NCBI GenBank assembly: GCA_050250895.1
Contig: JBFWNU010000001.1
Coordinates: 1,608,008-1,672,007, forward strand
Length of the DNA: 64,000 nucleotides
From: Vulcanimicrobiota bacterium
Lineage (GTDB): Bacteria > Vulcanimicrobiota > Xenobia > Xenobiales > JADMJV01
Reading direction: 5' to 3'
How positions within the stretch are numbered: the first letter of the stretch is position 1; each line of letters starts with the position of its first letter. A program made the translations under genes and the position numbers. Below the pieces are notes generated by a model that was given only the letters and a program-made list of their open reading frames with translations, was not told the origin of the DNA and searched no databases. Shown piece after piece: positions 5,768 through 63,928 of the stretch.

Positions 5768-5805
5768 GTCTGCCTGACGTGGACGAGGACATAGGACCCC
5801 TTGCC

Positions 5806-6243
5806 GTGGTGATTACTCATCAGGTGGAGGAGTCCAGCGAGGTTCGCGAGAGCTTGCTTTTGCAGGCCGCGACGGTCGCCGCCCGGGTGGGGGGGTGCCG
5901 GGAAGAAGCCGAGCTGAGCCTGGTTATGGCTGACGATGAGATCATCCGTGAGCTCAACCGGGATTATCGGGGCATCGATAAGGCCACCGATGTGCTCTCT
6001 TTTGCCCAGGACGAAGGTCCAGCCTTTCCTCAAAGCGGCTTGCGGTTGCTTGGTGATGTCATCGTGTCGATCGATACGGTGCGCAGACAGGCGGCTAGCA
6101 ACGGCGTGGCTTTCGAGCGTGAGTTAGCCTGGGTGGTCTGCCACGGAGTCTTGCATCTGCTTGGCTACGATCATCAGAACGACGAGGAGCACGCCCAGAT
6201 GGTGGCCCTCGAGAATCAAGCCCTTCAGGAGCTGGGTTTCTGA
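5806..6243 (+). CDS. ybeY: rRNA maturation endoribonuclease YbeY
   Basis: LNRDYRGIDKATDVLSF and HGVLHLLGYDH zinc motif; GTG start at 5806 chosen from AGGA RBS (start uncertain). Confidence 0.93.
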   Translation: MVITHQVEESSEVRESLLLQAATVAARVGGCREEAELSLVMADDEIIRELNRDYRGIDKATDVLSFAQDEGPAFPQSGLRLLGDVIVSIDTVRRQAASNGVAFERELAWVVCHGVLHLLGYDHQNDEEHAQMVALENQALQELGF

Positions 6244-6671
6244 TGAAGATCTCCAAGAGCCCGGGCTTGTTGGCCAGTTTGCGATTCGCCCTCGATGGCT
6301 TGCGCTATACCTTCGAGCGCGAGCGGAATTTTCGCACTCACTGCGCCCTGGCCGTGGTAGCCTGTGGATTGGGCTGGCGGTGTGGACTGCCCCGCCTCGA
6401 CTTTCTCTGGGTGGGCCTGGTCATTACCCTGGTGTTGGTGGCAGAGTTGTTCAACACGGCCGTAGAGAGCCTGGTCGATATGGCTTCTCCTGCCGTCCAT
6501 CCTCTGGCCAAAGCGGCCAAGGACGCATCTGCCGCAGGCGTCCTGGTCACCTCTCTGTTTGCGGTGGTGGTGGGCTTGCTGATCTTCGGACCACACCTTG
6601 GTTGGTGGCAGGTTGGGTTGTTCTTGGGCCTGGTGGGCCTGAGCCTGGGAAAGGGTAGAGCGCCTTGTTAG
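6243..6671 (+). CDS. dgkA: Diacylglycerol/undecaprenol kinase family protein
   Basis: ERNFRTH, AELFNTAVESLVD, AKAAKDASAAGVL; follows ybeY. Confidence 0.9.
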   Translation: MKISKSPGLLASLRFALDGLRYTFERERNFRTHCALAVVACGLGWRCGLPRLDFLWVGLVITLVLVAELFNTAVESLVDMASPAVHPLAKAAKDASAAGVLVTSLFAVVVGLLIFGPHLGWWQVGLFLGLVGLSLGKGRAPC

Positions 6672-7906
6672 AGTTGTGGGGGCTGCCGGCCGTCGGAGTC
6701 GGAATGATTCTCGTGATCAGCCTGCTGGGCATGGCCGAGACGGCCCTGACTCAGGTAGGTTTACACCGCGTCCAGCGGATGTTGGCGGGTGACCAGGGGG
6801 ACGAGGCGTTCACCCCTGAAGAGCAAGCTCGCCTGCTGACCACGCTCCTGATGCTGCGCTCGATCCTGATTTTGATGCTGGGTGCTCTGACCGCTCTGTG
6901 GGCGGTGCGCATCGTGCCCGGGCCGGCCTATCTGCTGGCTTGCCTTTGCCTGACCACTCTGGTGCTGGTGGGTATCGAAGTCTTGGGGCGTCGCTACGCC
7001 CGGGTTCACTCCGATGCTATTGTGGCTAAGACTTTGTCCTTGCTGCGCAAGGTCAACCTGCTGCTCTCGCCCCTGGTCAACTTGATCTTCTTGCTGACCA
7101 ATCCCTTGAGCCCTGGTGAAGACAAGCTGCCCCTGGCCAGCCTGCAGGACCTGCACGAAGAGATCCTCGAGCTGAAATCGCAGGGCTTGCTCGAAGAAGC
7201 CGACACCGAGATGATCGAGTCGCTTTTCGAACTGGGCGAGACCATCGCTCGGGAGGTGATGGTGCCGCGGGTGGACATGATCTGCGCCCAGGTCGGCACC
7301 TCGCTGGGCGACGTGGTGGCCCTGATGAAAGAGCACGGGTTCTCGCGGATTCCGGTCTATCAGGATTCGATCGACACCATCTTGGGCTTCGTCCACGTCA
7401 AGGACCTGCTCACCGATATCGAGAACTCGACTCGGCCGGTGACCCGCGAAGACCTGCGCGAGGTGCTGGTGGTCCCCGGCACCAAGAAGGTAGTCGAGAT
7501 TTTGCGCGAGTTGCAGTCCGAGAATCTGGCTCTGGCGGTGGTGCTGGATGAATACGGCGGCACGGACGGCCTGCTCACTCTCGAGGACATCGTGGAAGAG
7601 ATCGTGGGTGACATCAACGACGAGTATGATCAGGAAGTGGCCGATCTCGAGATGCAGTCGGATGGCTCGGCCATTGTCGACGCCAAGATGATTCTCGAGG
7701 ATGTCAACGAGAGCCTGGGTCTGGACATTCCCGTCGACGAGCACGAGACGCTGGGCGGGTTCGTCTATGGCCAGCTGGGGCGCGTCCCCAAACCCGACGA
7801 GACCATCGAATTGGAAGGTCTGCGACTGACCGTGGTCGACGTCAATCGTCGCCGCATTACCCGTGTCCGTGTCGAGCGACTGGGTATCGAGGAGAACGTA
7901 GCCTGA
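6665..7906 (+). CDS. CNNM/CorC (hemolysin-like) protein: DUF21-CBS pair-CorC
   Basis: TM N-terminus, AREVMVPRVDM, GFSRIPVY, DEYGGTDGLLTLEDIVEEIVG, ETLGGFV. Confidence 0.92.
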   Translation: MLELWGLPAVGVGMILVISLLGMAETALTQVGLHRVQRMLAGDQGDEAFTPEEQARLLTTLLMLRSILILMLGALTALWAVRIVPGPAYLLACLCLTTLVLVGIEVLGRRYARVHSDAIVAKTLSLLRKVNLLLSPLVNLIFLLTNPLSPGEDKLPLASLQDLHEEILELKSQGLLEEADTEMIESLFELGETIAREVMVPRVDMICAQVGTSLGDVVALMKEHGFSRIPVYQDSIDTILGFVHVKDLLTDIENSTRPVTREDLREVLVVPGTKKVVEILRELQSENLALAVVLDEYGGTDGLLTLEDIVEEIVGDINDEYDQEVADLEMQSDGSAIVDAKMILEDVNESLGLDIPVDEHETLGGFVYGQLGRVPKPDETIELEGLRLTVVDVNRRRITRVRVERLGIEENVA

Positions 7907-47164: not shown

Positions 47165-48280
47165 ATGGAGCAGTTGGATGTCAATGCCTACTACGCCCTG
47201 GGCATACCGGCCTATTTTCTGCTGATCGCCTGGGAGGTCTGGGCCACCCGTCGCCAGGGCCTGAAGGTCTACGGTTTTGCCGACACGATCTGCAACATCA
47301 GCGGCGGCATGGGCGAGATTATGATCGGGTTCTTCATCGGCCCCTACCTCTTCTGGCTCTACGCCTGGGCCTATGACCACTTCGCCCTGATCCGTTGGCC
47401 CGACCACTCCTGGGTGCCGTGGGCGCTGGCCCTCTTCGGAGGCGACTTCTGCTATTACCTCTACCATCGCGCCGGCCACGCCGTGGCCTGTCTGTGGGCT
47501 ATCCACGGAGTCCATCATCAGGCCGAAGAGATGAACGTGACGGTGGCCATGCGCCACCCCTGGTTTTCGGACCTCTACTCGGTCTTCTTCTACGCTCCCC
47601 TCCCCTTGCTGGGCATCCCGCCGCTGCACTTTTTCGTCTGCATCGCCATCATCTCGTTCTATGCCCTGTTGGTCCACTCGAGGGTGTTCCATCGCCCCGG
47701 CTTCTATCTGCTGGTGACTCCCGCCACCCATATCGTCCATCACGCCACCAACCCGCGTTATCTCGGCAAGAACCTGGGCGCCATGTTCACCATCTGGGAC
47801 CGACTTTTTGGCACTCACGTCGAACTCGACCCCGACGACCCGCCGGTGCTGGGCACTCGGCGCGGCTACGAGACCCACAGCGGCGCTCGGTCGCAGTGGA
47901 TCTTCTTTCGTGATCTCCTGGCGGCGGCCCGCCAGGCCGACAACTGGAGAGACCGCTTCTGGGTGTTCTTTGGCCATCCAGGCTGGTTGCCCCCCGGGGC
48001 CTCGCTGCCAGCCACCCATCCGCCTCCGGCCGACCGCGAGATAGGCTGGCTGACCAAGAGCTATGTCATGCTGCAGTATGTTCCGATGGCTCTGTTTTCG
48101 TTGATGATCGTGGCTCAGCGCGAGCTGTTTAGCGCCGGTCTGGTAGCGGTCGTGGCCGTCTTCTACTTCTGGGGATTGGCTACTCTGGGTGGCATGCTCG
48201 ACGGCAGTCGCCCGGCCCGGCGCTGGGAGGCGGCCAGGCTGGTCACCGGCGCCCTGGTCGTCTGTTTTTGGATCGCTTGA
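47165..48280 (+). CDS. Sterol desaturase/fatty acid hydroxylase family (alkylglycerol monooxygenase-like)
   Basis: His boxes YLYHRAGH, IHGVHH, HIVHH; NLGAMFTIWDRLFGT. Confidence 0.9.
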   Translation: MEQLDVNAYYALGIPAYFLLIAWEVWATRRQGLKVYGFADTICNISGGMGEIMIGFFIGPYLFWLYAWAYDHFALIRWPDHSWVPWALALFGGDFCYYLYHRAGHAVACLWAIHGVHHQAEEMNVTVAMRHPWFSDLYSVFFYAPLPLLGIPPLHFFVCIAIISFYALLVHSRVFHRPGFYLLVTPATHIVHHATNPRYLGKNLGAMFTIWDRLFGTHVELDPDDPPVLGTRRGYETHSGARSQWIFFRDLLAAARQADNWRDRFWVFFGHPGWLPPGASLPATHPPPADREIGWLTKSYVMLQYVPMALFSLMIVAQRELFSAGLVAVVAVFYFWGLATLGGMLDGSRPARRWEAARLVTGALVVCFWIA

Positions 48281-49005
48281 TGAGCGAGGTGGTGGGGGTC
48301 GAGAATCTCAGCGTCGACTTCGGGCGCGGACCGGTTCTCGATCAGGTCTCGTTTAGCCTCACGGGCCCCGGCTTCGTGGGGATTCTAGGTCCCAACGGGG
48401 CCGGCAAGACCACCCTTTTGAGTGTGCTCGAAGGCCTGCAGCGGCCCTCGGGCGGAGTGGTTCGGCTCTTTGGCCAGAATTTGGCCGGGGTCGCCTATCC
48501 CCGCCATCGCACCGGGGTGGTGCTGCAAAAAGAATGCGCCTTCGAGGGCATTCGTGTCGGTGAGTATGCCGAGCTGTTTGCAGCCCTGTATGGGGTTGAG
48601 CGCGGACAAGAGCGGATCTTGGCCGAGGCCGAACTCGCTCACCGGGACACTTTGCCGCTGGCGCGCCTTTCGGGCGGCGAGGCCCAGCGACTGTTTCTGG
48701 CCGCCGCCACGGTCCACCAACCGGAGCTGGTCTTTCTTGACGAGCCGACCGCTCACCTCGACCCCGATAGCCGGCGCGAGGCGGGTCGTCGGCTGCGAAG
48801 CCTGGCCGAAAGTCGCACGGTGGTGATGACCACTCACGACTTGCGCGAGGCTCAGGAGCTTTTCGACCAGGCGATCTTTCTCGTCGAGGGCAGGGTCCGG
48901 GCTCAGGGCACGGTCGAGAGTCTACGCCATGGCTTTGAAACCCTGGAAGAGGCGTTCATCGCTCGCTGCAGCGTGCGCATCGGCCCTCGAGGCGACCAGC
49001 ATTGA
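48280..49005 (+). CDS. ABC transporter ATP-binding protein
   Basis: GPNGAGKTT, LSGGE, FLDEPT, TTH. Confidence 0.93.
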   Translation: MSEVVGVENLSVDFGRGPVLDQVSFSLTGPGFVGILGPNGAGKTTLLSVLEGLQRPSGGVVRLFGQNLAGVAYPRHRTGVVLQKECAFEGIRVGEYAELFAALYGVERGQERILAEAELAHRDTLPLARLSGGEAQRLFLAAATVHQPELVFLDEPTAHLDPDSRREAGRRLRSLAESRTVVMTTHDLREAQELFDQAIFLVEGRVRAQGTVESLRHGFETLEEAFIARCSVRIGPRGDQH

Positions 49006-49988
49006 GAGCCTTCTGGCTATTGACCCGCCTGCGCATGGCCGAGATCGTGCGCGTGCCCAGCACCATGGTTTTCTTTTTCGTGATGCCCGCGGTCATGCTG
49101 CTGGTCACGGCCGCGCTCTTTGCGGGCGGCCAACCCTATTCGCTCTGCCGGGTCGGGTTGGTGGGTGACACCGGCGGCCCCTGGGCTCTGGCCTCAGAGA
49201 TTCGCTGGTCGAACGAGAACCTCGAGCAAGGCCTGGCTCGGCTAAGAACCTCCCAGCTCAATGCCCTGATCACGCGGGACGGCGGCGGTCTGGTGGTGTT
49301 GGTCGGCCCCCGCCAACGCTTGCTGGGCGACGGTTTGGCCGCCGCCCTGCCCAAACCCGCTCGGGTCGAGGTGGTAACCGTGCCAGGGGCCAGTTTCGTC
49401 TACTACCTTTGCCCGGGAATCCTGGCTTTGGCCGTAATTCTCAGCGGGCTCTTCGGGCTCGGCCATAGCCTGGCCCGCTACCGGCAGAGCCACTTCTTGC
49501 GCAAGCTGGCCACCACGCCCCTGTCGAAGTGGACCTTCATCGCCTCGCAGCTCTGTGGGCGCGGCCTGTTGGTGCTGTTGCAAGGCGGGTTGTTGCTGCT
49601 CCTCATGGCACTGCTCGGGCTTCCCCTGAGTCTGGTGCAAGTCGTCGAAGCGATGCTGATTTGCTCGCTAGGCTTGCTGGTCTTCCTGGGGCTGGGGTTC
49701 GTGTTGGCCTGCTTCGTGCGCAATGAAGGGGTGTTGGCTGACGCCATCAACGCGCTGGGTTGGCCTCTGGTGCTGGGGTCCGAGATCTTCTTCCCCAGCG
49801 ATGTGTTGCCGGGTCCTTTGCCGGTCCTGGCCGGCTGGTTGCCGTCCACCGAGCTGGTACGATTGTTGCGGGGTGTACTGCTCGGTGGCCCGGGCGAGCG
49901 GCTGGTAGGGATGGGCGAGTTGGCCCTGTGGGCGGTGCTCGCCTTTGCCCTGGGCGGTCTGCTCTTCGATTGGACTCGGCTGGATTAG
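49002..49988 (+). CDS. ABC-2 type exporter permease
   Basis: Multi-TM protein, FLRKLATTPLSKWTF, coupled to the ATPase. Confidence 0.88.
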   Translation: MRAFWLLTRLRMAEIVRVPSTMVFFFVMPAVMLLVTAALFAGGQPYSLCRVGLVGDTGGPWALASEIRWSNENLEQGLARLRTSQLNALITRDGGGLVVLVGPRQRLLGDGLAAALPKPARVEVVTVPGASFVYYLCPGILALAVILSGLFGLGHSLARYRQSHFLRKLATTPLSKWTFIASQLCGRGLLVLLQGGLLLLLMALLGLPLSLVQVVEAMLICSLGLLVFLGLGFVLACFVRNEGVLADAINALGWPLVLGSEIFFPSDVLPGPLPVLAGWLPSTELVRLLRGVLLGGPGERLVGMGELALWAVLAFALGGLLFDWTRLD

Positions 49989-50995
49989 GTGGTTCTCAGC
50001 CGGGTGGCCAGGTCTCGCCAACCGGTTAGACGGCCCCGTTGACCGAGGGCCTGAGCCATGCCTCGGCAGGCGGTCCAACATTGCTGGCAACCCTCGATCG
50101 GTTGGCGGTCGGCGACCATCCGGGCGTGTATCACGCCAAGCGCCTCGTCTTTGACGTTGCCATAGACGGTGTCGATCCGTTCGATGCAGGCGGCCACATT
50201 GCCGACGTGGTCGATGTTGAAGGACTGCACCCCGGCCCGACAGGTTGGCAGCTCGCCGTCCCCGAGAAAGGCGTGCATGTCGCGAAAGTAGTCGCCGAAG
50301 TAGCGCAGGTGAGGGTAGCGGCGCCACCACTTCAAGAGCGCCTCGGCGGCTTCGGGACCGGGCAACTGGTCGAGTTGCGAGCGCCCGCGTCGAAAGCCCC
50401 CGGTCGATAGCAGCGTGAACTGATGGCCCACGCCATGGGCGTGGCTGAGCTCGAGCAAAGCCTCGAGATCGCGCCAATTGTCTTCCATCACCACGCTCAT
50501 CACGGCCACCTGTTTGCCGCCGCGGGGGGCGGCGGCTCGTAGCCGGTCGACGGCTTGCCAGGCCCTTTCGAAGGCCCCGGGCAAGCAGCGTTTGGCGTCG
50601 TGACGCTCCGGGTCGGGATAGTCGATCGAGATGCAGCAGGTACCCAGCCCTGCCTCGAACAGGGCCCTGGCATTTTCGGCCGTAACATACCAGCCGTTGG
50701 TGAAGAGAGTCGGGATGTGCTGGTCCGAGAAGGCGCCGACGATCTCGACTAAGTCCTGGCGTACGAACGGCTCGCCGCCTTCGATCGAGATCAGAAAGTT
50801 GCCCAGTTGACCGAGTTCGCTGGCCAGGCGCCGGTAGTGGTCGAGAGACAACTCGTGGTCGCGGTCGGTGTTGGGCCAGAAATCGCAAAAGCTGCATTTC
50901 ATGTTGCAGCGGTTGGTGACCTGGAGAAGGCAGTTGAAGGGCCGGTTGAAAAGCACCCCCAGGGCAAAGCGCAGATCGCGAAGCCAGTCCTGCAT
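49985..50995 (-). CDS. Radical SAM protein with SPASM/twitch domain
   Basis: CNMKCSFC, GGEP, TNG; C-terminal CRAG..ACIE..CQQCWTAC. Confidence 0.92.
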   Translation of the reverse strand: MQDWLRDLRFALGVLFNRPFNCLLQVTNRCNMKCSFCDFWPNTDRDHELSLDHYRRLASELGQLGNFLISIEGGEPFVRQDLVEIVGAFSDQHIPTLFTNGWYVTAENARALFEAGLGTCCISIDYPDPERHDAKRCLPGAFERAWQAVDRLRAAAPRGGKQVAVMSVVMEDNWRDLEALLELSHAHGVGHQFTLLSTGGFRRGRSQLDQLPGPEAAEALLKWWRRYPHLRYFGDYFRDMHAFLGDGELPTCRAGVQSFNIDHVGNVAACIERIDTVYGNVKDEALGVIHARMVADRQPIEGCQQCWTACRGMAQALGQRGRLTGWRDLATRLRTT

Positions 50996-54375: not shown

Positions 54376-54933
54376 GTGCCAGCCCCCATCGTATCGAAAG
54401 AAGAAGTGTTGCAGCGCCTCACCGAGGCCTTTCGCCGGGTGGGCTACGAGGGGGCGTCCATGGCCTTTCTGGCCGAGCAGACCGGGCTCAAGAAGGCCAG
54501 CCTCTACCACTACTTTCCGGGCGGCAAGAAGGAGATGGGTGAGGCTGCCCTGGCTCAGGTCGGCTTGTGGTTACAGGACGAGATCCTGGCCACTCTGCTC
54601 CAAGACAAGCCTCCCCGGGAACGGTTGCAAGCCATGAGCGTCAGGCTCGACGAGTTCTATCAGTCGGGCCAGAAGTGGTGCCTGGTCGACCTCTTCTCGG
54701 TGGGCGAGGCGGGTCAGCACTTTCAGAGCATTCTTAAAGAGGCTCTAACCACCTGGATGAAAGAGTTGGCCCGAGTGGCCGAGCAGGCGGGAGTGGAGAA
54801 GAAGCTGGCTCGCCACCGGGCCGAAGAGGTCTTGATCGCCCTGCAAGGCTCCCTGGTCATGGCTCGCGCTCTGGGCGAACCCGGGCTTTTCTTGCGCACC
54901 CTTCGCGAGCTACCGGCTCGGATGCTCGATTAA
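54376..54933 (+). CDS. TetR/AcrR family transcriptional regulator
   Basis: FRRVGYEGASM..GLKKASLYHYFPGGK HTH; AGGAG RBS before GTG. Confidence 0.93.
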   Translation: MPAPIVSKEEVLQRLTEAFRRVGYEGASMAFLAEQTGLKKASLYHYFPGGKKEMGEAALAQVGLWLQDEILATLLQDKPPRERLQAMSVRLDEFYQSGQKWCLVDLFSVGEAGQHFQSILKEALTTWMKELARVAEQAGVEKKLARHRAEEVLIALQGSLVMARALGEPGLFLRTLRELPARMLD

Positions 54934-56276
54934 TCGGGAAATTTCCAGCCGGCCAGGAATTGGCGGCCCAGGCGCTTGCCCACATCTCGCAGTAGCGGAG
55001 CCAATTGGCGATAGGCCGAGAGCACCTCGACCACCTCATCGACCAGCCGCTCGACCTCCTCTGCGCGGATGGTCAGGGGCGGCTCGAGCTTGAGCACGTC
55101 CCAGCGCAGGGCGGCCGGTTGGCAGATGATGCCGCGCTCGAGCAGACGCACGGCCAGCCATTGGCCGAAGACGTTGCGCGAGACGGCTCCCACCACCGAG
55201 CCTTTCAAGCCCCCGGGCTCGACGCCCAGTTCCACGCCGACCAGCAAGCCGCGCCCACGCACTTCGCGGACCAGGGGGTGCCCGTCGAGGGCCGTGCGCA
55301 AGCCCTCGAGCAGTTGCTCGCCTCGTAGGCGCGCGTTTTCGACCAGGCTTTCCTCGCCGAGAATGCGCAAGCTGGCTCTGGCGGCGGCACAGCCGAGAGC
55401 GTAGCCCGAGAAGGTCGAGCCATGCAGGTCGAAGCGCTCCATCGTGCCATAGGCTCGCTGGTGCAAGTCTCGGCTGGTGAGACAGGCCGAGACCGGCAGG
55501 ATGCCGCCTCCCAGTGCCTTACCCAGAATCACCACATCGGGTTCGAGCTGGCCCTGAAAAGCAAACAGTTGCCCGCTGCGTCCCAGGCCGGTCTGGACCT
55601 CGTCGAGCAAGAGCAGCGAGCCGTTGGCCCGACACAAGCGCTGGGCCTGGCTCAGATAATCTGGCCCGGGCAGGCGGACCCCGCCCTCGCCCTGGATGGG
55701 CTCGACCAGAAAGGCGGCCACGCCGGGATGCAGGGCCTTCTCGAGGGCGGCCAGATCACCGAAGGGGACCCGCAGGCAGTCCGTCAGAAGCGGCTCGAAG
55801 GGGGCCCGCATGCGCTCGGCGCCCATCACCGAAAGCGCCCCGAAGCCGGTGCCGTGAAAGCCGTCTTCGCAGTAGACGAAGCCGGCCCGTCCGGTGGCCG
55901 CCCGGGCCAGCTTGAGGGCCGATTCGACCGCCTCGCCACCCGAGGTCGAAAACATGGCCACCTCGAGGGGTGGGCCGGCCAGGGCCGTCAGCTCTTGAGC
56001 CAGTTCGGCCACGGCTGGCGAGGGCCCGATGTGGAGCAGGTCGGGGTGGGGCTTGGCCAGCTCGTCAGACAGCGCCTTGCGTAGGGCCGGGTGGCGATGG
56101 CCGAGGTTGGTGGCTCCGAACCCGGCCAGGGCATCGAGATATTCGCGACCCTCGCTATCCCACAGTCGGGTGCCCTCGGCTCGCACAAAGACCCGGCCAT
56201 AGCCGAGAACGCCCAGCAGTTTGACGAAGGCCGGGTTGACGTGGCGGGCATAGGTCTCGACGATGGGGTGGCTCAG
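54930..56276 (-). CDS. Class III PLP-dependent aminotransferase; probable CTG start
   Basis: YLDALAGFG..LGH, FLVEPIQGEGG, DEVQTGLGRSG, GKALGGG; frame extends 30 codons above the track start (YARHVNPAFVKLLG) to a CTGA overlap with GGAGG RBS. Confidence 0.9.
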   Translation of the reverse strand: MSHPIVETYARHVNPAFVKLLGVLGYGRVFVRAEGTRLWDSEGREYLDALAGFGATNLGHRHPALRKALSDELAKPHPDLLHIGPSPAVAELAQELTALAGPPLEVAMFSTSGGEAVESALKLARAATGRAGFVYCEDGFHGTGFGALSVMGAERMRAPFEPLLTDCLRVPFGDLAALEKALHPGVAAFLVEPIQGEGGVRLPGPDYLSQAQRLCRANGSLLLLDEVQTGLGRSGQLFAFQGQLEPDVVILGKALGGGILPVSACLTSRDLHQRAYGTMERFDLHGSTFSGYALGCAAARASLRILGEESLVENARLRGEQLLEGLRTALDGHPLVREVRGRGLLVGVELGVEPGGLKGSVVGAVSRNVFGQWLAVRLLERGIICQPAALRWDVLKLEPPLTIRAEEVERLVDEVVEVLSAYRQLAPLLRDVGKRLGRQFLAGWKFPD

Positions 56277-57304
56277 GGGGCCTCCAGGCGGTCGCGCAAA
56301 GTGGCCGCAAGGGCCGGGGCGTCTTGAGCCATGCCGCGCAGGAACTGGCTGCTCACGCCGCGGGCGCAGTGGACTCCCATCAGGAACAGGCCAGGCGTAT
56401 TGACGCTCTCGCCCTGGTTGCCCAAGGGGTGGCCGTCGGCCGGCGAGCGAGCCACGCTCTCGGGCAGATAGGCCATGGCGTAGCGGTAGCCGGTGGCGCA
56501 GACCACCAGGTCGAACTCGGCCTGGCTGCCGTCGCTAAAGGTGGCCGTCTTGCCCTCGAAGGTCTTCACCGGGGGGCGCACCTGCAGCCGGCCCTCTTGC
56601 TGAAAACGGCGAAAGTCCTGGTCATAGCCGGTGAAGGTGGGTGACTTGCGGCAATAGCCCCAGGCCAGCCAGCGGGGCAGCCAGGACAGCCGAAAGGCAT
56701 AGTCATGAACATCGCGCCCCAGCAGGCGCTGAGGGCTGAACTTGACCTGGCCGCGGCAGCTGACCGTGGGCTTGAGGCCGGCTCGGCAGCTTTCTTCGGC
56801 GATCTCGACGGCGCTCACTCCACGACCGATGATGAGCAGACGCCGAGCGGCCAGCTGGTCGGGCCCTCGCCACTGGCTCGAGTGCATCCAGTTGGGTCCG
56901 AGGGGAAGGTCGGGCCAGTTCAACCCGTCCATGCCAGTGGCCGTGACCACGGCTTGAAAGTGCTGGCGGTGGTCGCCAAAATCGACCTCGAAACCGCCCT
57001 CGACCACCGTCAGGCTGGTCACTTCGGCCGGCTCGGGCTCGAGTTCGAAATGGCGCGCGTAGTGGTGCAGATAGTCGCGATAGCCGGCCACGGTGACGTA
57101 TTCTCCCGGTGTCTCGATGGCCAGACCCGGCAAGCTGGTCCAGCGGGCTGGCGACGAGAGCGTGATGCGTTCGTGTAGCCAGTTGTAGGCTCCACCCGGG
57201 CGGCCCTGGCGGTCGACGAAGCGGGCCTGGATACCCTGCTGAGCCAGGCTGGCCATGGTGGCAAGCCCCGCCGGTCCTGCTCCGATCACCAGCACCTGAC
57301 TCAT
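56273..57304 (-). CDS. Flavin-containing monooxygenase-like NAD(P)/FAD oxidoreductase
   Basis: GAGPAG, ATG, WMHSSQWR (FMO motif), GRGVSA, ATGY. Confidence 0.88.
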   Translation of the reverse strand: MSQVLVIGAGPAGLATMASLAQQGIQARFVDRQGRPGGAYNWLHERITLSSPARWTSLPGLAIETPGEYVTVAGYRDYLHHYARHFELEPEPAEVTSLTVVEGGFEVDFGDHRQHFQAVVTATGMDGLNWPDLPLGPNWMHSSQWRGPDQLAARRLLIIGRGVSAVEIAEESCRAGLKPTVSCRGQVKFSPQRLLGRDVHDYAFRLSWLPRWLAWGYCRKSPTFTGYDQDFRRFQQEGRLQVRPPVKTFEGKTATFSDGSQAEFDLVVCATGYRYAMAYLPESVARSPADGHPLGNQGESVNTPGLFLMGVHCARGVSSQFLRGMAQDAPALAATLRDRLEAP

Positions 57305-57380
57305 TCCCAGGCTTTCGCGAGGTCGACCGACCATCCCGCCGGGGAAAGAAAAGATGCCGGGGGGGCGAACTCTAGACTCC

Positions 57381-58130
57381 ATGGGACTTCTCTCGCGCGA
57401 TACCTCGCCCGAAGCTGAAAAAGTTCAGTTTGACATCCTCCGACGCCGCGGCATGCAGGGGCGGCTGGTCCTGCTAGAAGAGGCGATGCTGACCGGCTGG
57501 GCTCTGGCTCGCATGGGGGTGGCCCAGCGGCACGGTGAAGGCGTGCCAGATGCCGACCAGGAGAAAGACGCGATGAAGCCACTGGAAACCCCGCTTGAGG
57601 TGACGCGGGTGCTCGACGCTTTGGCTATTCCCTATGTGGTCGGCGGTTCCTACGCCAGCAGCCTCCACGGGGAACCGCGCTCTACTCGCGATTGTGATCT
57701 GGTGGTGGAATTGGTCAAAGGGCATCTCGGTCGCTTTTGCCAGGCCCTCGAGGACAAATTCTACTTGAGTCGAGCAGCCATCGAAGAGGCCTTGGCTCGC
57801 AAGAGCACGTTCAATCTCATTCACTTTCAAACAGGTTTCAAGATCGACATCTTCGTCTCGGCTGGGCGCCCGTTCGACCGAGAGCGCATGGCCCGAGCCC
57901 TGGTTCTCGAGGTTGCCGGCCAACCGGTCAGATTCTCGACGGCCGAGGACACGATCCTGGCCAAATTGGAGTGGCAGGCTCTGTCGAACAGCGAACAGCA
58001 GTGGCGCGATATTCTCGGTATCGTCCTGCTAGCGGAAGACGGCTTGGACCGGGGCTATCTGCGCCATTGGGCAACCGAACTCGGTGTGCTTGAGCAACTC
58101 GAGCAAGCCTTCGCGGCGGTTAGCGAATAA
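57381..58130 (+). CDS. Nucleotidyltransferase-fold protein with N-terminal antitoxin-like segment
   Basis: VVGGSYASSLHGEPRSTRDCDLVV NTase motif, KIDIF, EDTILAKL; N-terminal DTSPEAEKVQFDILRR; internal AGGAG-ATG at 57573. Confidence 0.8.
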   Translation: MGLLSRDTSPEAEKVQFDILRRRGMQGRLVLLEEAMLTGWALARMGVAQRHGEGVPDADQEKDAMKPLETPLEVTRVLDALAIPYVVGGSYASSLHGEPRSTRDCDLVVELVKGHLGRFCQALEDKFYLSRAAIEEALARKSTFNLIHFQTGFKIDIFVSAGRPFDRERMARALVLEVAGQPVRFSTAEDTILAKLEWQALSNSEQQWRDILGIVLLAEDGLDRGYLRHWATELGVLEQLEQAFAAVSE

Positions 58131-59592
58131 ACGGGCCTTTGCCGAAAGGAGCGCCGCCCGTGCCGGGCCCCTTGGCGGCCCCGCGGTGGAACAGGTTGAA
58201 ACCGCAGGCCGGCATGATGCGGCCGTCGATCTGCGGGTAGTGATGACAGCACTTCATCAGCCGTTCGACATCGAAGTCGTGGCGGTCCATGTAATGGTGG
58301 ATGAAAATGGTCTTGACCTGGCGCTCGGCGATGCGGATCAGTTCCTGGCGGGGTAGATTCTGGTTGGGAAACATCTCGAGCAGGGCCCGGCGCATGGCCT
58401 TGATGATCTTCTGGCTGTCGGGCACTTCTCCCGCGGCGCTCCACAGGTCATCGATGACCTGGCGAATGGAGTCCTCAGTCTGGGCGTTGGGCTCGATGGT
58501 GGCCGTCTGGGCGAATAGATCGAGATGCTTGCGCATGTCGACAAAGCGAGGAAACGGCAAGAAGGTGCCGTCGCCCATATTGAGCAGGTAGGTCAGCGAC
58601 ACGCACAGCGGGTGCGAGCATGGCAGCGGGATGAAGTCTTCGCGGGCCACCGCTCCGTCGGTTTGCTCGTCGATGGCCCGGATGACTCCGGGAATGGTCA
58701 GCCGGTCCATCGGATCGTGCGGAAAGACGCCGCCCCCGTGGCCGGTGGCCGAGAAAGGCTGGATCAAGAGCGAGAGCACATGGTCGCGCTCCATTAGCAG
58801 GCGCACCGCGTCGCCCAGCTGGTGCTCGTTGACCCCCCGGGCCGGCACATAAGCGATCTGGGTCGAGATGCCCAGCTCGGCTAGATTTTCGAGGGCTTTC
58901 CACTTGGTCTCCATCAGCGGCACCCCGCGGATGGTCGTTTGGATCTCGTCGGTAAAGCCGTCGAGCTGCAAGATGACATAGACGTTGCGAGCCTTGAGTT
59001 GCTCGCAAAACTCGCGCGAGTTGGCGATGCGAATGCCGTTGGTCACCACCGACACGCGGCCGATTTCGGGCCGGGTGGCCATGTCCACCAGCTCGAGAAA
59101 ACGGGGATGGGAGGTGGGTTCGCCTCCGCTCAGGGTGATGGTCTCGAGACTGCCCTCGGCTTTGAGCAGCAGGTCGATGATGCCCTGGAAGTCGTCGTTG
59201 GTCATGTGGTTGGAATACTGGTTATTCACGATGCACACCGGGCATTCGAGGTTGCAGTGATCGGTGATCTCGACGATGGGCAGACAGGTGTGCTGCTGGT
59301 GGGCCGGGCACAGACCGCAGTCGGTGGGGCAGCCGGCCTTGACGGCGGTAGAGAAGTGCAAAGGGGTGCTGCCCGGCTTGATGTAGGAAAAGGCCTTCTG
59401 GTAATACTCGGCGTCTTCGCTGACCAGGGCTTCGCTATGGCCATGGTCGGGGCAGAACTTGAGAAAATAGACCTTGCCTTCGCGAAAGACCACCTGCGCC
59501 TGAATGATCTTGAGACACTCGGGGCAGCAGCTCATGGTCATCTTGAAGAAGGTGTAAGGGCGGTCGCCTCGGCAACAGGATGGACTGGTCAT
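58120..59592 (-). CDS. Radical SAM enzyme of the Tes/GDGT-MAS/Mss (MJ0619-like) family
   Basis: N-terminal CPEC..CPDHG, CPTDCGLCPAH..TC, CNLECPVC, GGEP, C-terminal MD..ERLMKCC..DGRIMPAC; ATGA overlap with the ACP gene. Confidence 0.88.
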   Translation of the reverse strand: MTSPSCCRGDRPYTFFKMTMSCCPECLKIIQAQVVFREGKVYFLKFCPDHGHSEALVSEDAEYYQKAFSYIKPGSTPLHFSTAVKAGCPTDCGLCPAHQQHTCLPIVEITDHCNLECPVCIVNNQYSNHMTNDDFQGIIDLLLKAEGSLETITLSGGEPTSHPRFLELVDMATRPEIGRVSVVTNGIRIANSREFCEQLKARNVYVILQLDGFTDEIQTTIRGVPLMETKWKALENLAELGISTQIAYVPARGVNEHQLGDAVRLLMERDHVLSLLIQPFSATGHGGGVFPHDPMDRLTIPGVIRAIDEQTDGAVAREDFIPLPCSHPLCVSLTYLLNMGDGTFLPFPRFVDMRKHLDLFAQTATIEPNAQTEDSIRQVIDDLWSAAGEVPDSQKIIKAMRRALLEMFPNQNLPRQELIRIAERQVKTIFIHHYMDRHDFDVERLMKCCHHYPQIDGRIMPACGFNLFHRGAAKGPGTGGAPFGKGPFIR

Positions 59593-59966
59593 GGGGTTTG
59601 CACTTCCTTCTGTTTCAGCTCGACCACCCGGGCCAGGCTGGCCACCGTGATGTGCGAGAAAAGATCGGCTGGATAGAGCGGTCGGGGAGCCTGACGCAGG
59701 CTGGGCAGCCATTCATACAGGCGCTCGAGGTCGGGTTCGCTCAGGGGACCCTGTTCTTGCTCGCTCAACTCGCCCCGCAATAGCCGGTCGAGCTCAGAGT
59801 TGCGCAACTTGACGCGAAAGCGTTTTTCCAGCGTAAAGAGCAGGTCGAGCAGGTCCAACGAGTCGGCGCCCAGGTCATCGAACAGGCGCGATTCGGACTG
59901 AACGTCGTCGGGGTCGAGGGCGAGCCGCTCGCACAGAACCGTTTGAACCGTTGCCACGACGCTCAC
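59589..59966 (-). CDS. Acyl carrier protein with internal insertion
   Basis: DDLGADSLDLLDLLFTLEKRF phosphopantetheine site; about 45 extra residues before ITVASL. Confidence 0.9.
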   Translation of the reverse strand: MSVVATVQTVLCERLALDPDDVQSESRLFDDLGADSLDLLDLLFTLEKRFRVKLRNSELDRLLRGELSEQEQGPLSEPDLERLYEWLPSLRQAPRPLYPADLFSHITVASLARVVELKQKEVQTP

Positions 59967-60796: not shown

Positions 60797-61192
60797 TTGC
60801 AGTGTAGTTCCCATCCAGAAGTCGAGGCCACTACGCGTTGCGAAGGATGTGGCGAGCTGTTTTGCCACCAGTGCACCACCGAGGTGCGAGGCGAGAAATA
60901 CTGCCGGGCCTGCAAGCACATCCCCATCCTGGGCAATCCTATCGGCGCTCTCTCTGACCAGAGCCCTGGCGAAACCTGTCAACCGGCGGCCGAGGCCCTC
61001 AAGTTCGCCGTCATCGGAATGCTCTGCTGCGGAGCGATCATGGGCCCGCTGGCCGTCATCAAGGCGCTCGAAGCCAAGAAGCTCATCGAGAACGAGCCTC
61101 ACTATACCGGGGTCGGAATGGCCAATGCCGCGCTTTTGGTGGGCGGCATGGAGACTTTGATCTGGCTGGTTGGCCTGTTGGGGAACGGCTGA
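60797..61192 (+). CDS. B-box-type zinc finger plus DUF4190-like membrane domain
   Basis: CSSHP..CEGC..FCHQC..YCRAC; two TMs with GPLAVIKA..TGVGMANAALLVG. Confidence 0.82.
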   Translation: MQCSSHPEVEATTRCEGCGELFCHQCTTEVRGEKYCRACKHIPILGNPIGALSDQSPGETCQPAAEALKFAVIGMLCCGAIMGPLAVIKALEAKKLIENEPHYTGVGMANAALLVGGMETLIWLVGLLGNG

Positions 61193-61824
61193 TGAGAGAG
61201 TTGATCTGCCCCGAGTGCCAGGCCGAGATCGTGGTGCTCGATGACAAGACCGCCTATTGCCCGCGCCACGGTGGCAAGTTCAAACTGTTGCATCTGGCTC
61301 CGGCCTCTCGGGTCGAACTGGCCCGTGAACTCGAGACGACGACGCCGGGGCCGGGAGTGGGCAACCAGAAGTGCCACTATCATCAGGAGGTCGACGCCAG
61401 GTTCTTGTGTCGTGGCTGCGGCAAGCCGTGTTGCCGACTGTGCACGTTTGCCATTGGAATGATGAAGCTGTGCGCCGATTGTGCCACCACCGGGCCCGAG
61501 CCGCTCATTCCCAAGCGTAAGAAACTCGTGGATAACGCCCTGCGGCTGGCCGGATTGGCCACCTTCTTCTTCGTGGGCATCATCGTCTTGTTGGTTTCGG
61601 GTAGCGATCTCTTAGCGATTCTGGGAGTGCTGGGGATCTTCTTGATTCCGTTCTTCGTCATGATCCCGTCGACGGTGGGCTTTTTCATGGCGCTAGAGGC
61701 GGTCGACCGACATCTCGAGAATCCTGTGGTGTTATGGGGGGCTCTCATCTGGAATGGTCTCATCTTTAGCATCTTTGCCTATCTGGGGCTGCGTTTCCTG
61801 GTGGCCCTGTTCCTGGGGGTATGA
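61192..61824 (+). CDS. Zinc ribbon plus B-box zinc finger plus 3-TM membrane protein
   Basis: CPEC..CPRH; CHYHQ..CRGCGKPCCRLC..LCADC; hydrophobic C-terminal half. Confidence 0.82.
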   Translation: MRELICPECQAEIVVLDDKTAYCPRHGGKFKLLHLAPASRVELARELETTTPGPGVGNQKCHYHQEVDARFLCRGCGKPCCRLCTFAIGMMKLCADCATTGPEPLIPKRKKLVDNALRLAGLATFFFVGIIVLLVSGSDLLAILGVLGIFLIPFFVMIPSTVGFFMALEAVDRHLENPVVLWGALIWNGLIFSIFAYLGLRFLVALFLGV

Positions 61825-62492
61825 TCGTGCAATATGAGATTCACGCCGATACGACCTTTGCGGTGCGACGCCTGGCCATCACTCCCCAAGGGGTCGTCTA
61901 CACCCGCTCGATCGGGCAACCCCTGCACGTTCTCTACCCAGACATCACGGCTGTCCTGGTTTCGAGTACCGACATGCTGACCATTCACGCCAAAGGCGAG
62001 ATCATGCGTCTGGGGCTCAAGCCCGAGCACCAGCCGGCCCTGCAGGCGATGCTGGGTTATCTCAAAGCGGCCGTGCCCGAGGCCGAGGACGCCCTCGAGG
62101 CCACCTTTAGCGAGCACCCGCCCGAGCTACCGCCGGAAGAGCCGGTGCGCCAACCGGGTGGCCTCAAAGAAGTGAAGTTCGCTCCTATGTCGGCCCAAGA
62201 ATTGGCCGCGAGGCGACAGCCTCCGCCCGGAGCCCAGAACATTCCCGAGCCTAGCAAATTGGGACAGGTGAGTCCTCGAATCGGTTCCAAGCCGGTCTCG
62301 CTCGGTGTCGAAGGCTCGCCCCAGCCTAAGGCCCAGCCGGATCATGAGGCGATGTTGATGGAGCGCCGGGCCCGCCAATACGACCTGCCTCCCAGCGCGC
62401 CCCCCATTCCCAAGCCGGCTGCCGATAGCCCCAGCGGACCCATCAGCGCAGCCGAGATCATCAAGCGCAGGCAAGCGCGAGAGGAGAGCTAG
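61821..62492 (+). CDS. PH-like domain protein with Pro-rich disordered tail
   Basis: RLAITPQGVVY..YPDITAV..LTI..C-terminal helix pattern typical of bacterial PH folds; ATGA overlap. Confidence 0.6.
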   Translation: MIVQYEIHADTTFAVRRLAITPQGVVYTRSIGQPLHVLYPDITAVLVSSTDMLTIHAKGEIMRLGLKPEHQPALQAMLGYLKAAVPEAEDALEATFSEHPPELPPEEPVRQPGGLKEVKFAPMSAQELAARRQPPPGAQNIPEPSKLGQVSPRIGSKPVSLGVEGSPQPKAQPDHEAMLMERRARQYDLPPSAPPIPKPAADSPSGPISAAEIIKRRQAREES

Positions 62493-62762
62493 ATGTCAGA
62501 GGTTCGCGTCAAGATTCTGGACGTTTCCGGCAGCCGCAGTCGTGAAGCCGAACTGCCGGCTGACGTGCCGGTCGAGCGCTTGCTCATTCTGCTGGTCGAA
62601 CGACTCGAACTGCCGCTCAACAGCCCCGACGGGCAGCTGATGGTCTACAAGCTTCACCATCGCGCCAGCGGGCGCCAGTTGCTCGATCACGAGACCCTGG
62701 GCCAGGCCCAGGTCAAGCACGGCGAAGAGTTGCGTCTGCAGCCGGAGATCATCGCTGGATGA
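62493..62762 (+). CDS. Ubiquitin-like protein (EsaB/YukD-like beta-grasp) ending in Gly
   Basis: VRVKILD..ELPADVPVERL..QLLDHETLGQAQVKHGEELRLQPEIIAG; directly upstream of E1. Confidence 0.88.
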   Translation: MSEVRVKILDVSGSRSREAELPADVPVERLLILLVERLELPLNSPDGQLMVYKLHHRASGRQLLDHETLGQAQVKHGEELRLQPEIIAG

Positions 62763-63928
62763 CGATGACCCTGGCAGAGGGCCGCTTTGCTCGCTTCTCG
62801 CAGATCGGGTGGTGGAATCAAGAGCTGCTCGCTCGGGCTCGCGTACTGGTGATCGGAGCCGGCGCGCTCGGCAACGAAGTGGTCAAGAACCTGGCTTTGC
62901 TCGGGGTCGGCAATCTGGTCATCGCCGATATGGACACCATCGAGCTCTCGAATCTAAGCCGAAGTGTCCTCTTTCGGGCTGAAGACGAAGGCAAGGCCAA
63001 AGCCGAGGTGGCGGCCGCCGCCGCGCGCTCCCTCTATCCCGACATGAAGATTCAGGCGGTGGTGGTGAACGTGCTGGCAGGTTTGGGCCTGGGCTACTTC
63101 CGCTGGGCCCACGTCGTGGTGGGGGCCCTCGACAATCGCGAGGCGCGGGTCTTTGTCAACAGTCGCTGCGCTCAACTGGGCAAGGCCTGGTTCGATGGAG
63201 GCATCGAGGCGCTCAACGGGGTGGTGCGCGGCTTTTCGGCCCCCGACACGGCTTGCTATGAGTGCACCATGTCCAAGCAAGACTGGGAGCAGATCGAGAA
63301 ACGGCGCTCCTGCTCTTTGTTGGCCCGCCAAGCCCTGGCTCAGGGGACCATGCCGACGACGCCGACTACCGCCTCGGTGATCGGCGGGATGCAGGCTCAA
63401 GAGTTGGTGAAGTTCTTGCACCACGGTCACGACGAGTCGGCCTTGCTGGGCAAGGGCTTCTTTTTCGAAGGGCTGCGGCATTCGTCCTATCCCATCAGCT
63501 ATCGAATCAACCCCGAATGTCCCTGGCACGAGCCCGCCTGCTCCGTCGAGAGTTGCCCGCAGTTTTCGAGCCAGACCGTGATCGACGAGCTCTGGTCTTT
63601 CGCCGAGGAGCGCCTGGGTGGCCTGGACGGGCTGGATTTTTCGCGCGAGATGGTCGAGCGCCTCACTTGCCCGAGCTGTGGCGACGAGCGCCAACTCTAC
63701 AAAGCCCTGGACCACCTCAGCGAGGCTGACGCCCCCTGTCCCGAGTGTGGGCAAGAGTGCTTTCCGGCCCTTTTTCACGGGGTCCACGCCAGCAGCGCCG
63801 CCCGAGCTCAGACGCCGGCCCAGCTGGGTCTGCCGCGCTGGGACATCATCTGGGCTCGCCGTGGTGAGGAGTATCTCGGCCTCGAACTCAGCGGCGACCG
63901 GCCTGAAGAACTCGGGGTGCCGGCATGA
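62759..63928 (+). CDS. E1-like (ThiF/MoeB family) ubiquitin-activating enzyme with C-terminal zinc-ribbon domain
   Basis: GAGALGNE, SNLSRS, DNREAR, CYEC, candidate catalytic Cys in RSCSLL, CPWH, CPSC..CPEC. Confidence 0.93.
   Translation: MTMTLAEGRFARFSQIGWWNQELLARARVLVIGAGALGNEVVKNLALLGVGNLVIADMDTIELSNLSRSVLFRAEDEGKAKAEVAAAAARSLYPDMKIQAVVVNVLAGLGLGYFRWAHVVVGALDNREARVFVNSRCAQLGKAWFDGGIEALNGVVRGFSAPDTACYECTMSKQDWEQIEKRRSCSLLARQALAQGTMPTTPTTASVIGGMQAQELVKFLHHGHDESALLGKGFFFEGLRHSSYPISYRINPECPWHEPACSVESCPQFSSQTVIDELWSFAEERLGGLDGLDFSREMVERLTCPSCGDERQLYKALDHLSEADAPCPECGQECFPALFHGVHASSAARAQTPAQLGLPRWDIIWARRGEEYLGLELSGDRPEELGVPA

Follow-up and report, generated by a model that had tools for sequence, protein, structure and literature searches.

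An acyl carrier protein with a helical insertion and a radical SAM enzyme of the Tes superfamily are parts of one conserved biosynthetic cluster

The gene pair and its two products

The stretch analysed here (the window) comprises 64,000 nucleotides of contig JBFWNU010000001.1 (positions 1,608,008 to 1,672,007, forward strand) from the assembly GCA_050250895.1 of a Vulcanimicrobiota bacterium. Its minus strand carries an acyl carrier protein (ACP) gene with a GTG start (59589-59966, 125 residues, PF00550), followed by the gene of a 490-residue radical S-adenosylmethionine (SAM) enzyme, here called TesA (58120-59592, PF04055 and the N-terminal zinc ribbon PF23545); both belong to a conserved biosynthetic cluster of about 14 genes that has spread by horizontal transfer. 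The two genes share an ATGA stop/start overlap (59589-59592, minus strand), in which the TGA of the ACP gene occupies 59589-59591 and the ATG of TesA 59590-59592. An AAGGAAG word (59603-59609, minus strand), called Shine-Dalgarno-like from its resemblance to the consensus alone, lies 10 nt upstream of the TesA start codon, within the ACP gene. This arrangement suggests translational coupling of the ACP and TesA. An identical 4-bp overlap was found in a relative locus (L009; ACP 5615-5980, enzyme 5977-7443) of a second genome, G054, the overlap being kept in both genomes of this bacterial order, whose TesA proteins are 82% identical. A 530-residue reading of TesA, beginning at an ATG at 59712, was rejected because the homologues begin at the 490-residue start and residues 11-19 are conserved. 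An Rfam scan of the 0.8 kb upstream of the ACP gene yielded a single match at chance level (E = 0.45), and a scan for promoters and terminators gave no usable signal. Among public sequencing runs, no RNA run was listed for the region, and two DNA runs of a single study shared small parts of its words.

The ACP matched PF00550 with E = 6.2e-11 and 42.8 bits (gathering cut-off 20.8), and residues L32, G33, D35, S36, L37 and D38 were invariant in 31 sequences. All 16 ACP models of NCBIfam scored below their cut-offs, the best with 53.6 bits against 71 (housekeeping AcpP, TIGR00517 and related). An insertion of about 45 residues (about residues 64-105), absent from ordinary ACPs, separates helix III from the last helix; it was conserved across the alignment of 31 homologues, and the 24 further ACPs (122-170 residues) retrieved by a word-indexed protein search all had it. 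The AlphaFold2 model of the ACP (predicted local distance difference test, pLDDT, 84) placed helices at residues 3-14, 36-50 (from Ser36), 58-63 and 108-123 (the last helix), and extra helices at 77-86, 88-92 and 99-105. Both the model and its Foldseek matches support the helical-bundle ACP fold: the top matches were ACPs of 71-101 residues, as were almost all of the matches listed (template modelling score, TM, normalised as TMt, 0.65-0.84), none of them at E <= 0.001, and the insertion was covered by no solved ACP among the matches. The specialised ACP RPA2022 of Rhodopseudomonas palustris (PDB 2KW2/3LMO; 94-101 residues) was among the best structural matches (TMq 0.58-0.62), and ACPs of the RPA2022/AcpXL type are, like the one described here, longer than the housekeeping ACP; the identity to RPA2022 was only 20%, however, and the extra helices of the window ACP are inserted ahead of the last helix. 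The language-model neighbours of the ACP carried automatic names of the AcpXL type, which were taken as a lead only. Carriers of the RPA2022/AcpXL type are linked to very-long-chain acyl groups. In the window ACP, the extra helices of the model probably give the carrier a larger body, suited to a chain that is long or bulky.

TesA contains four cysteine motifs, C23xxC26...C47xxH50, C88xxxC92xxC95...C103, C113xxxC117xxC120 and C448C449...C463. In a 36-row alignment of relatives of TesA and of TesB, the second Tes-like enzyme of the cluster, these residues were invariant except for H50 and C103, the latter at least 90% conserved; M435, C325 and C330, toward the C-terminus, were invariant as well. 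The archaeal tetraether synthase Tes holds a rubredoxin-like Fe (3 Cys and His), an N-terminal [4Fe-4S] cluster (3 Cys and His), the radical SAM cluster and a C-terminal [4Fe-4S] cluster (3 Cys and Met), the last of which captures the first substrate radical (PMC13459092). Against these centres were set, in TesA, C23/C26/C47/H50, C88/C92/C95/H98, C113/C117/C120 and C448/C449/C463 with M435, the ligands of the C-terminal cluster being assigned by sequence only, so that motifs for all four metallocentres of Tes were found.

The only solved full-length relative of TesA is the Tes of M. jannaschii (PDB 7TOL; PMC13459092), which phmmer matched over residues 16-471 with E = 3.3e-71. A Foldseek search with the AlphaFold2 model of TesA (pLDDT 89.6) matched 7TOM/7TOL over 486-499 aligned columns (E = 3.7e-41, TM 0.77, 30-31% identity), and the next matches covered the radical SAM core only (TM 0.36). 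Sequence and predicted structure together identify TesA as a full-length, whole-architecture homologue of the archaeal Tes/GDGT-MAS, with the same four-domain architecture and all the metal-site motifs. Pfam recognised the Radical_SAM domain (PF04055) and the zinc ribbon PF23545. The best-scoring NCBIfam model was that of the radical SAM (seleno)protein TrsS (NF045646), of the same superfamily, with 282.4 bits, far below its cut-off of 490, and the Tes model (NF045702) reached 277.1 bits against a cut-off of 450. TesB scored 255.1 bits with the latter model, and no protein above the Tes cut-off was found in a whole-genome search of the source genome. Because both scores of TesA are below cut-off, the models place it in neither the Tes nor the TrsS equivalog family, but in their superfamily only.

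Clustered at 50% identity, the family counted 506 representatives in a full phmmer search at E <= 1e-30. From 106 rows a quick tree was built with no outgroup, using 95 of the 150 best representatives (the 55 outside 420-580 residues were left out), 11 sequences from this analysis and FastTree (LG+CAT, Shimodaira-Hasegawa-like support, midpoint root). It split into two halves, and both TesA and TesB fell in the half of 50 rows (support 99), TesA in a clade of eight rows (support 100) and TesB in a separate clade (support 99). The proteins passing the Tes cut-off (P0232, 518 bits; P0265, 593 bits) and the TrsS cut-off (P0254, 545 bits) stood in one clade of 25 rows in the other half, so that TesA lies outside it, and none of the ten proteins sampled from the TesA half reached either cut-off. 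The TesA proteins of the window and of G054 were nested within other lineages. The tree supports a separate branch for TesA, and not any order of events.

An earlier reading of the window, made without database searches (hereafter the sequence-only reading), had described the overlap of the ACP stop with the ATG of the enzyme gene, leaving the strand unnamed, an ACP with a DSL motif and a long insertion, and four cysteine clusters in a 490-residue enzyme; the ATGA, the motif DLGADSLD with Ser36 and about 45 extra residues, and all four clusters were confirmed. It had also assigned the enzyme to a family of Tes and the bacterial membrane-spanning lipid synthase Mss, and of this call the Tes superfamily stood, whereas Tes proper and Mss did not. 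The phylogeny suggested along with that assignment separated TesA from the proteins scoring above either of the two equivalog cut-offs, Tes or TrsS. Like Tes, the Mss of Thermotoga maritima and Thermoanaerobacter ethanolicus is a radical SAM enzyme, proposed to join unactivated carbons of two acyl tails (PMC13159169). Its authors' BLAST search with a confirmed Tes found no Tes homologue in the two Mss-bearing species (Sahonero-Canavesi et al. 2022, PMC13159169), for which reason Mss appears as a different radical SAM lineage; it is set apart from TesA by that report, and not by a direct sequence comparison. The main text of the same paper gives no ACP or cluster context, with no occurrence of 'acyl carrier' or 'ACP'.

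Among the homologues of TesA, a fused ACP was considered for the longer proteins from Myxococcota (566-609 residues) and rejected, the extra part being a second N-terminal zinc ribbon. The Myxococcota-labelled homologues P0067, P0071 and P0101 (566-607 residues; P0101 from the cultured myxobacterium Archangium violaceum) have two tandem N-terminal zinc-ribbon modules, not one.

The cluster and its carrier

Besides TesA and the ACP, the members of the cluster are TesB, a SPASM-type radical SAM enzyme, a FabF-like ketosynthase (KS), a truncated KS-like partner (KSb), a FabZ-like dehydratase, three FabG-like short-chain dehydrogenases/reductases (SDRs), a nitroreductase-family protein, a small membrane protein, a PigE-like aminotransferase and a flavin monooxygenase. 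A discrete KS, a KS-like partner, a dehydratase, a ketoreductase and an ACP are therefore encoded together, as expected for a system resembling type II fatty acid synthases (FAS) or polyketide synthases (PKS).

TesA orthologues with 69-83% identity were found in records labelled as Acidobacteriota, Pyrinomonadaceae, Burkholderiales, Betaproteobacteria GR16-43, Turneriella, Bdellovibrionales and Vulcanimicrobiota, together with one of 52% identity in Acidimicrobiaceae and others in metagenomes. When the 14 cluster proteins were compared by tblastn with the TesA-centred loci, the aminotransferase, SPASM enzyme, SDR, membrane protein, TesB, FabZ-like dehydratase, KS and KS-like partner recurred as neighbours across Acidobacteriota, Burkholderiales, Betaproteobacteria, Turneriella, Bdellovibrionales, Acidimicrobiaceae and metagenomes. 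The common gene order was TesA, aminotransferase, SPASM enzyme, monooxygenase (in some loci), SDR, SDR, membrane protein and TesB, and then the chain-building genes for the FabZ-like dehydratase, KS-like partner, KS, SDR and, in some loci, the nitroreductase. An aminotransferase orthologue came after TesA in most loci, followed by the small radical SAM enzyme in L008, L010, L011, L013, L030, L031, L036 and L040, and monooxygenase orthologues adjoined or lay near TesA in L008, L009, L012, L013, L031, L036 and L037.

A combined tblastn and DSL-motif search of the TesA-centred loci detected the ACP only in L009/L020, since the ACPs of other lineages lie just beyond the flanks; these were recovered by whole-genome PF00550 and profile searches. 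Insertion-type ACPs, 38-46% identical to that of the window, were present in all the TesA genomes of other lineages (n = 8/8, G301-G308) and in 10/10 of the TesA-bearing genomes examined. In a sample of 301 genomes of the phylum, in which a first filter scored no more than 14 candidates per genome, the ACP profile at E <= 1e-20 matched exactly two genomes (G000 and G054); a TesA-like protein at E <= 1e-60 occurred in four genomes, with orthologue-level identity only in the same two. The two phylum genomes with only a distant Tes-like protein (38-40% identity) gave ordinary ACP matches only. The source genome contains 22 PP-binding matches, of which the insertion-type profile at E <= 1e-20 recognised one copy only; a candidate for the housekeeping-type acpP adjoins a fabG-like gene (C1:624092), and the sole PF01648 phosphopantetheinyl transferase gene of the genome (C2:682994-683245) is outside the cluster. 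These profile matches identify the insertion-type ACP as a cluster-specific, dedicated carrier, and a link of the ACP and TesA at the level of the pathway is strongly supported.

In the source genome, the cluster genes are scattered over about 50 kb (C1:1657998-1708086), all of them on one strand. Within the window, the minus strand carries, besides the ACP and TesA genes, a flavin monooxygenase gene (56273-57382, Pyr_redox_3/FMO-like by Pfam), translation of which probably begins at the Met near 57304, immediately ahead of the GAGPAG motif; a class-III, PigE-like aminotransferase gene (54930-56186, PF00202, E = 2e-86), with PigE as the best NCBIfam model (380 bits, cut-off 850); and a small radical SAM gene (49985-50995, PF04055), whose product is 58% identical to that of L011, an orthologue that scored best with models of the NirJ2/SPASM type, all below cut-off. 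Genes for a GH5 cellulase-family protein, a glutathione S-transferase, a PNPOx-like protein, a TetR regulator and a family-less plus-strand protein are interspersed among them. About 37 kb further, also on the minus strand, lies the distant group with the KS (C1:1699163-1708086), which comprises a FabG-like SDR, the FabF-like KS (388 bits, cut-off 493), the KS-like partner of 258 residues (N-terminal domain PF00109 only), the FabZ-like dehydratase, TesB (37% identical to TesA), the small membrane protein and two more FabG-like SDRs. The nitroreductase-family gene lies between the two groups (C1:1680723-1681280).

In having a KS with a truncated partner, FabZ-like and FabG-like enzymes and a dedicated ACP, the cluster resembles type II PKS/FAS-like systems of the aryl-polyene, flexirubin and cispentacin types, and its proteins gave weak, below-cut-off matches to the AmcF, AmcE, AmcB and FlxB models. 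It differs from them in the insertion of about 45 residues in its ACP, and no type II PKS/FAS-like system with Tes-family radical SAM enzymes was found in the literature. TesA, for its part, differs from Tes/GDGT-MAS in being bacterial, below the cut-off and in the other half of the tree, in being encoded in a cluster of fatty-acid/polyketide type with its own ACP and not among isoprenoid ether-lipid genes, and in forming a diverged pair with TesB. According to a 2026 review, the modification of ketoacyl lipids by radical SAM enzymes is essentially unknown beyond ladderanes and the Jaw5 product, with Mss treated separately, and the sections of the review drawn on here mention no ACP-linked Tes homologue (PMC13459092). 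A literature search found no paper on the cluster, although members of its clade may be included in the supplementary homologue lists of Zeng 2022 and Sahonero-Canavesi 2022.

Proposed chemistry and its alternatives

The explanation that fits best, to which we give an even chance, is that the ACP of the cluster carries a chain in which TesA and TesB couple carbons, most likely while it is still on the ACP. For the chemistry, substrate, tethering and product we infer the following scheme. The Ser36 phosphopantetheine of the ACP would hold the chain built by the KS, its KS-like partner, the reductases and the dehydratase, the nitroreductase-family protein possibly acting as a reductase in chain building. 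TesA and TesB would join unactivated carbons of the chain by means of 5'-deoxyadenosyl radicals and the auxiliary cluster, most likely with the chain still on the ACP. As in the Tes mechanism, a first hydrogen would be abstracted, the radical parked on the C-terminal cluster, a second hydrogen abstracted and the carbons coupled; a sulfur-adduct intermediate is known for Tes. The aminotransferase (omega-type) and the monooxygenase would install and modify an amine. The narrower proposal, in which both enzymes perform Tes-type C(sp3)-C(sp3) coupling on ACP-tethered chains, either joining two acyl-ACPs tail-to-tail or acting inside a single chain, is tentative and in our view rather doubtful.

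Action on a tethered chain, whose chances seem to us about evenly balanced, is favoured by the translational coupling kept in this bacterial order, by the scarcity of release and transfer enzymes (no thioesterase was found in the cluster open reading frames scanned, and an acyltransferase in one locus only) and by the unusual carrier. Several observations weigh against it. Adjacency to the ACP, on which the sequence-only reading had mainly relied, proved to be lineage-specific: an ACP upstream of TesA was detected (by tblastn and the ACP-family profile) in only 1/22 loci of other genomes, L009, a contig of G054, which was placed in the same bacterial order as the source genome. A locus was counted when it contained the start of TesA with 400 bp or more of upstream sequence and reached 50% identity, some of the metagenome loci looking like one organism repeated (L008/L036, L029-L031); L007, L016, L032, L035, L037, L038, L040, L042-L047 and L049, which lack the N-terminus or have less than 400 bp upstream, were left out, as were two relatives of 43-44% identity (L041, L046) and the remnant L050. 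In 8/8 of the other lineages the ACP gene was directly behind those of the KS, the SDR and, where present, the nitroreductase, and it was contiguous with the KS module in L051 (together with L013 the cluster of Betaproteobacteria bacterium GR16-43), L053, L054, L056 and L057, a gene order that argues only for a role of the ACP in chain building. The archaeal Tes, moreover, acts on complete membrane phospholipids in two hydrophobic pockets, with no carrier protein (PMC13459092), and the product and biochemistry of the scheme are predicted from genes. Co-folding of TesA (36-row alignment) with the ACP (31-row alignment), run without controls, returned no answer (score 0.00 in both runs) and is given no weight in either direction. 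The pair does not form a two-gene system and is part of the larger cluster; the claim that the ACP belongs with the enzyme was borne out by the genomes that share both.

The origin of the junction bears on the same question. TesA and the ACP usually occupy opposite ends of the cluster, and in G054 the block running from the ACP, TesA and the monooxygenase to the aminotransferase and SPASM enzyme is inverted directly behind the nitroreductase gene, the layout expected if the ends of the cluster were joined and an inversion followed. Because of these end positions, the inverted block and the nested placement of TesA in the tree, the ACP-TesA junction would be a derived rearrangement of this bacterial order, joining the last and first genes. 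Since the cluster is broken up in the order, the new junction could also be an accident of rearrangement, which again speaks against a functional meaning of the adjacency. In the metagenome locus L050 (741-1057), TesA breaks off after its first 39 residues and gives way directly to the C-terminal portion of an insertion-type ACP (profile positions 70-127), and the sequence looks like a deletion scar in which the whole cluster between the end genes was lost.

The same gene orders fit an account in which the ACP serves the KS module only, the chain is released into a membrane lipid, TesA and TesB act there, and the junction is a by-product of rearrangement; the product would be a membrane-spanning or macrocyclic lipid, for example from a long-chain amino- or glycerolipid. 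This account, which we regard as a real possibility without finding it probable, draws on the phospholipid substrates of Tes, on the place of the ACP behind the KS, SDR and nitroreductase genes, on the conserved small membrane protein and on the proposal of bacterial Tes homologues as enzymes of branched glycerol dialkyl glycerol tetraether (brGDGT) and iso-diabolic acid synthesis (PMC8941075). An LPG_synthase_TM membrane protein is encoded within the cluster in L013 (11699-12715, plus strand), and also in L008 and L036, and a PlsC-type acyltransferase (PF01553) just past the ACP in L052 (5946-6881, minus strand), from Turneriella; both are a hint, unfavourable to coupling on the carrier, that some lineages may build the product into a membrane lipid. 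Most loci are nevertheless without lipid-assembly genes, as the LPG-type gene occurred in three loci and the acyltransferase in one, and the aminotransferase and flavin monooxygenase would be unexpected for diabolic-type lipids. The rarity and patchiness of the cluster (2/301 phylum genomes) fit specialised metabolism better than a core membrane lipid, and the 4-bp coupling has been kept in two genomes whose TesA proteins share 82% identity.

It is also conceivable, though unlikely, that TesA performs another radical reaction, such as methylation, desaturation or the formation of a C-S or C-N bond, and not C-C coupling. A diverged function would be in keeping with the scores of TesA, which reach neither the Tes nor the TrsS cut-off, and with its place in the other half of the tree. 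No function is known for TrsS, a sister family that the review PMC13188914 merely lists in a table. Several close homologues are named '7,8-dihydro-6-hydroxymethylpterin dimethyltransferase' in databases, yet no context of a pterin pathway was seen, and the founding member, MJ0619, is Tes by its structure-based function, the M. jannaschii Tes being 7TOL. The residues of the four metal sites, among them the C-terminal Cys/Met set that would park the radical, are nearly all invariant in TesA and TesB, which further argues for coupling. That the ACP is an unrelated carrier which landed beside TesA by chance could be read from the single adjacent locus among 22 and the 22 PP-binding matches of the genome; it is very improbable, given that the insertion-type ACP is found in 10/10 TesA genomes, that its two matches in the phylum sample are exactly the TesA genomes, and that it exists as a single copy (E <= 1e-20) in a genome with a candidate housekeeping acpP elsewhere.

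Coupling on the carrier, if true, would make TesA the first carrier-protein-dependent member of the Tes superfamily, and the product would be a very long, two-headed or carbocyclic amino lipid of many soil and freshwater bacteria. The role of the bacterial Tes homologues has been a question since Zeng et al. 2022 counted 456 of them and suggested that they act in brGDGT synthesis (PMC8941075); the words 'acyl carrier', 'polyketide' and 'neighbor' are absent from the main text of that paper. Such homologues have been discussed for membrane-spanning lipids that are used as palaeoclimate proxies, and were reported in only 3/14 of the acidobacteria that produce iso-diabolic acid (PMC13159169). One branch of them is now tied to a self-contained chain-building machinery with an unusual ACP, which provides a defined gene set, a carrier on which intermediates could be trapped, and an either/or on the substrate (acyl-ACP or free lipid). 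The TesA branch probably represents specialised metabolism and not a core membrane-lipid pathway, a reading that bears on the use of Tes homologues as genomic markers of brGDGT producers.

Other genes of the region

A plus-strand open reading frame of 258 residues (57354-58130), situated between the TesA and monooxygenase genes, is convergent to TesA and overlaps its 3' end by 11 bp; it had no Pfam or NCBIfam match. In G054 the TesA and monooxygenase genes abut, without an intervening open reading frame. Two paralogues with 42% identity were found in the source genome (on C10 and at C1:83438), for which reason it may be a mobile or addiction-type insert. In the distant group, a tryptophan--tRNA ligase gene (C1:1699879-1700955; L017:4880-5956, minus strand; TIGR00233, 254 bits, over the cut-off) lies between the cluster KS and SDR genes in the source genome only. 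An AAA_14/DUF4143 ATPase gene (C1:1704941-1706098; L017:9942-11099, plus strand) interrupts the cluster from the other strand, between the genes of TesB and the membrane protein, and this insertion is another sign of the break-up of the cluster in the source genome.

On the plus strand of the window, a fatty-acid-hydroxylase-family membrane protein and an ABC-2 transporter (ATPase and permease) are encoded at 47165-49988, convergent with the small radical SAM gene of the cluster and extending right up to it. At 60797-63928, also on the plus strand, an operon-like row encodes two B-box-type zinc-finger membrane proteins, a family-less protein of 223 residues, a YukD-like ubiquitin-fold protein (62493-62762) and a ThiF/E1-like enzyme (62759-63928), and may represent a bacterial ubiquitin-like conjugation module.

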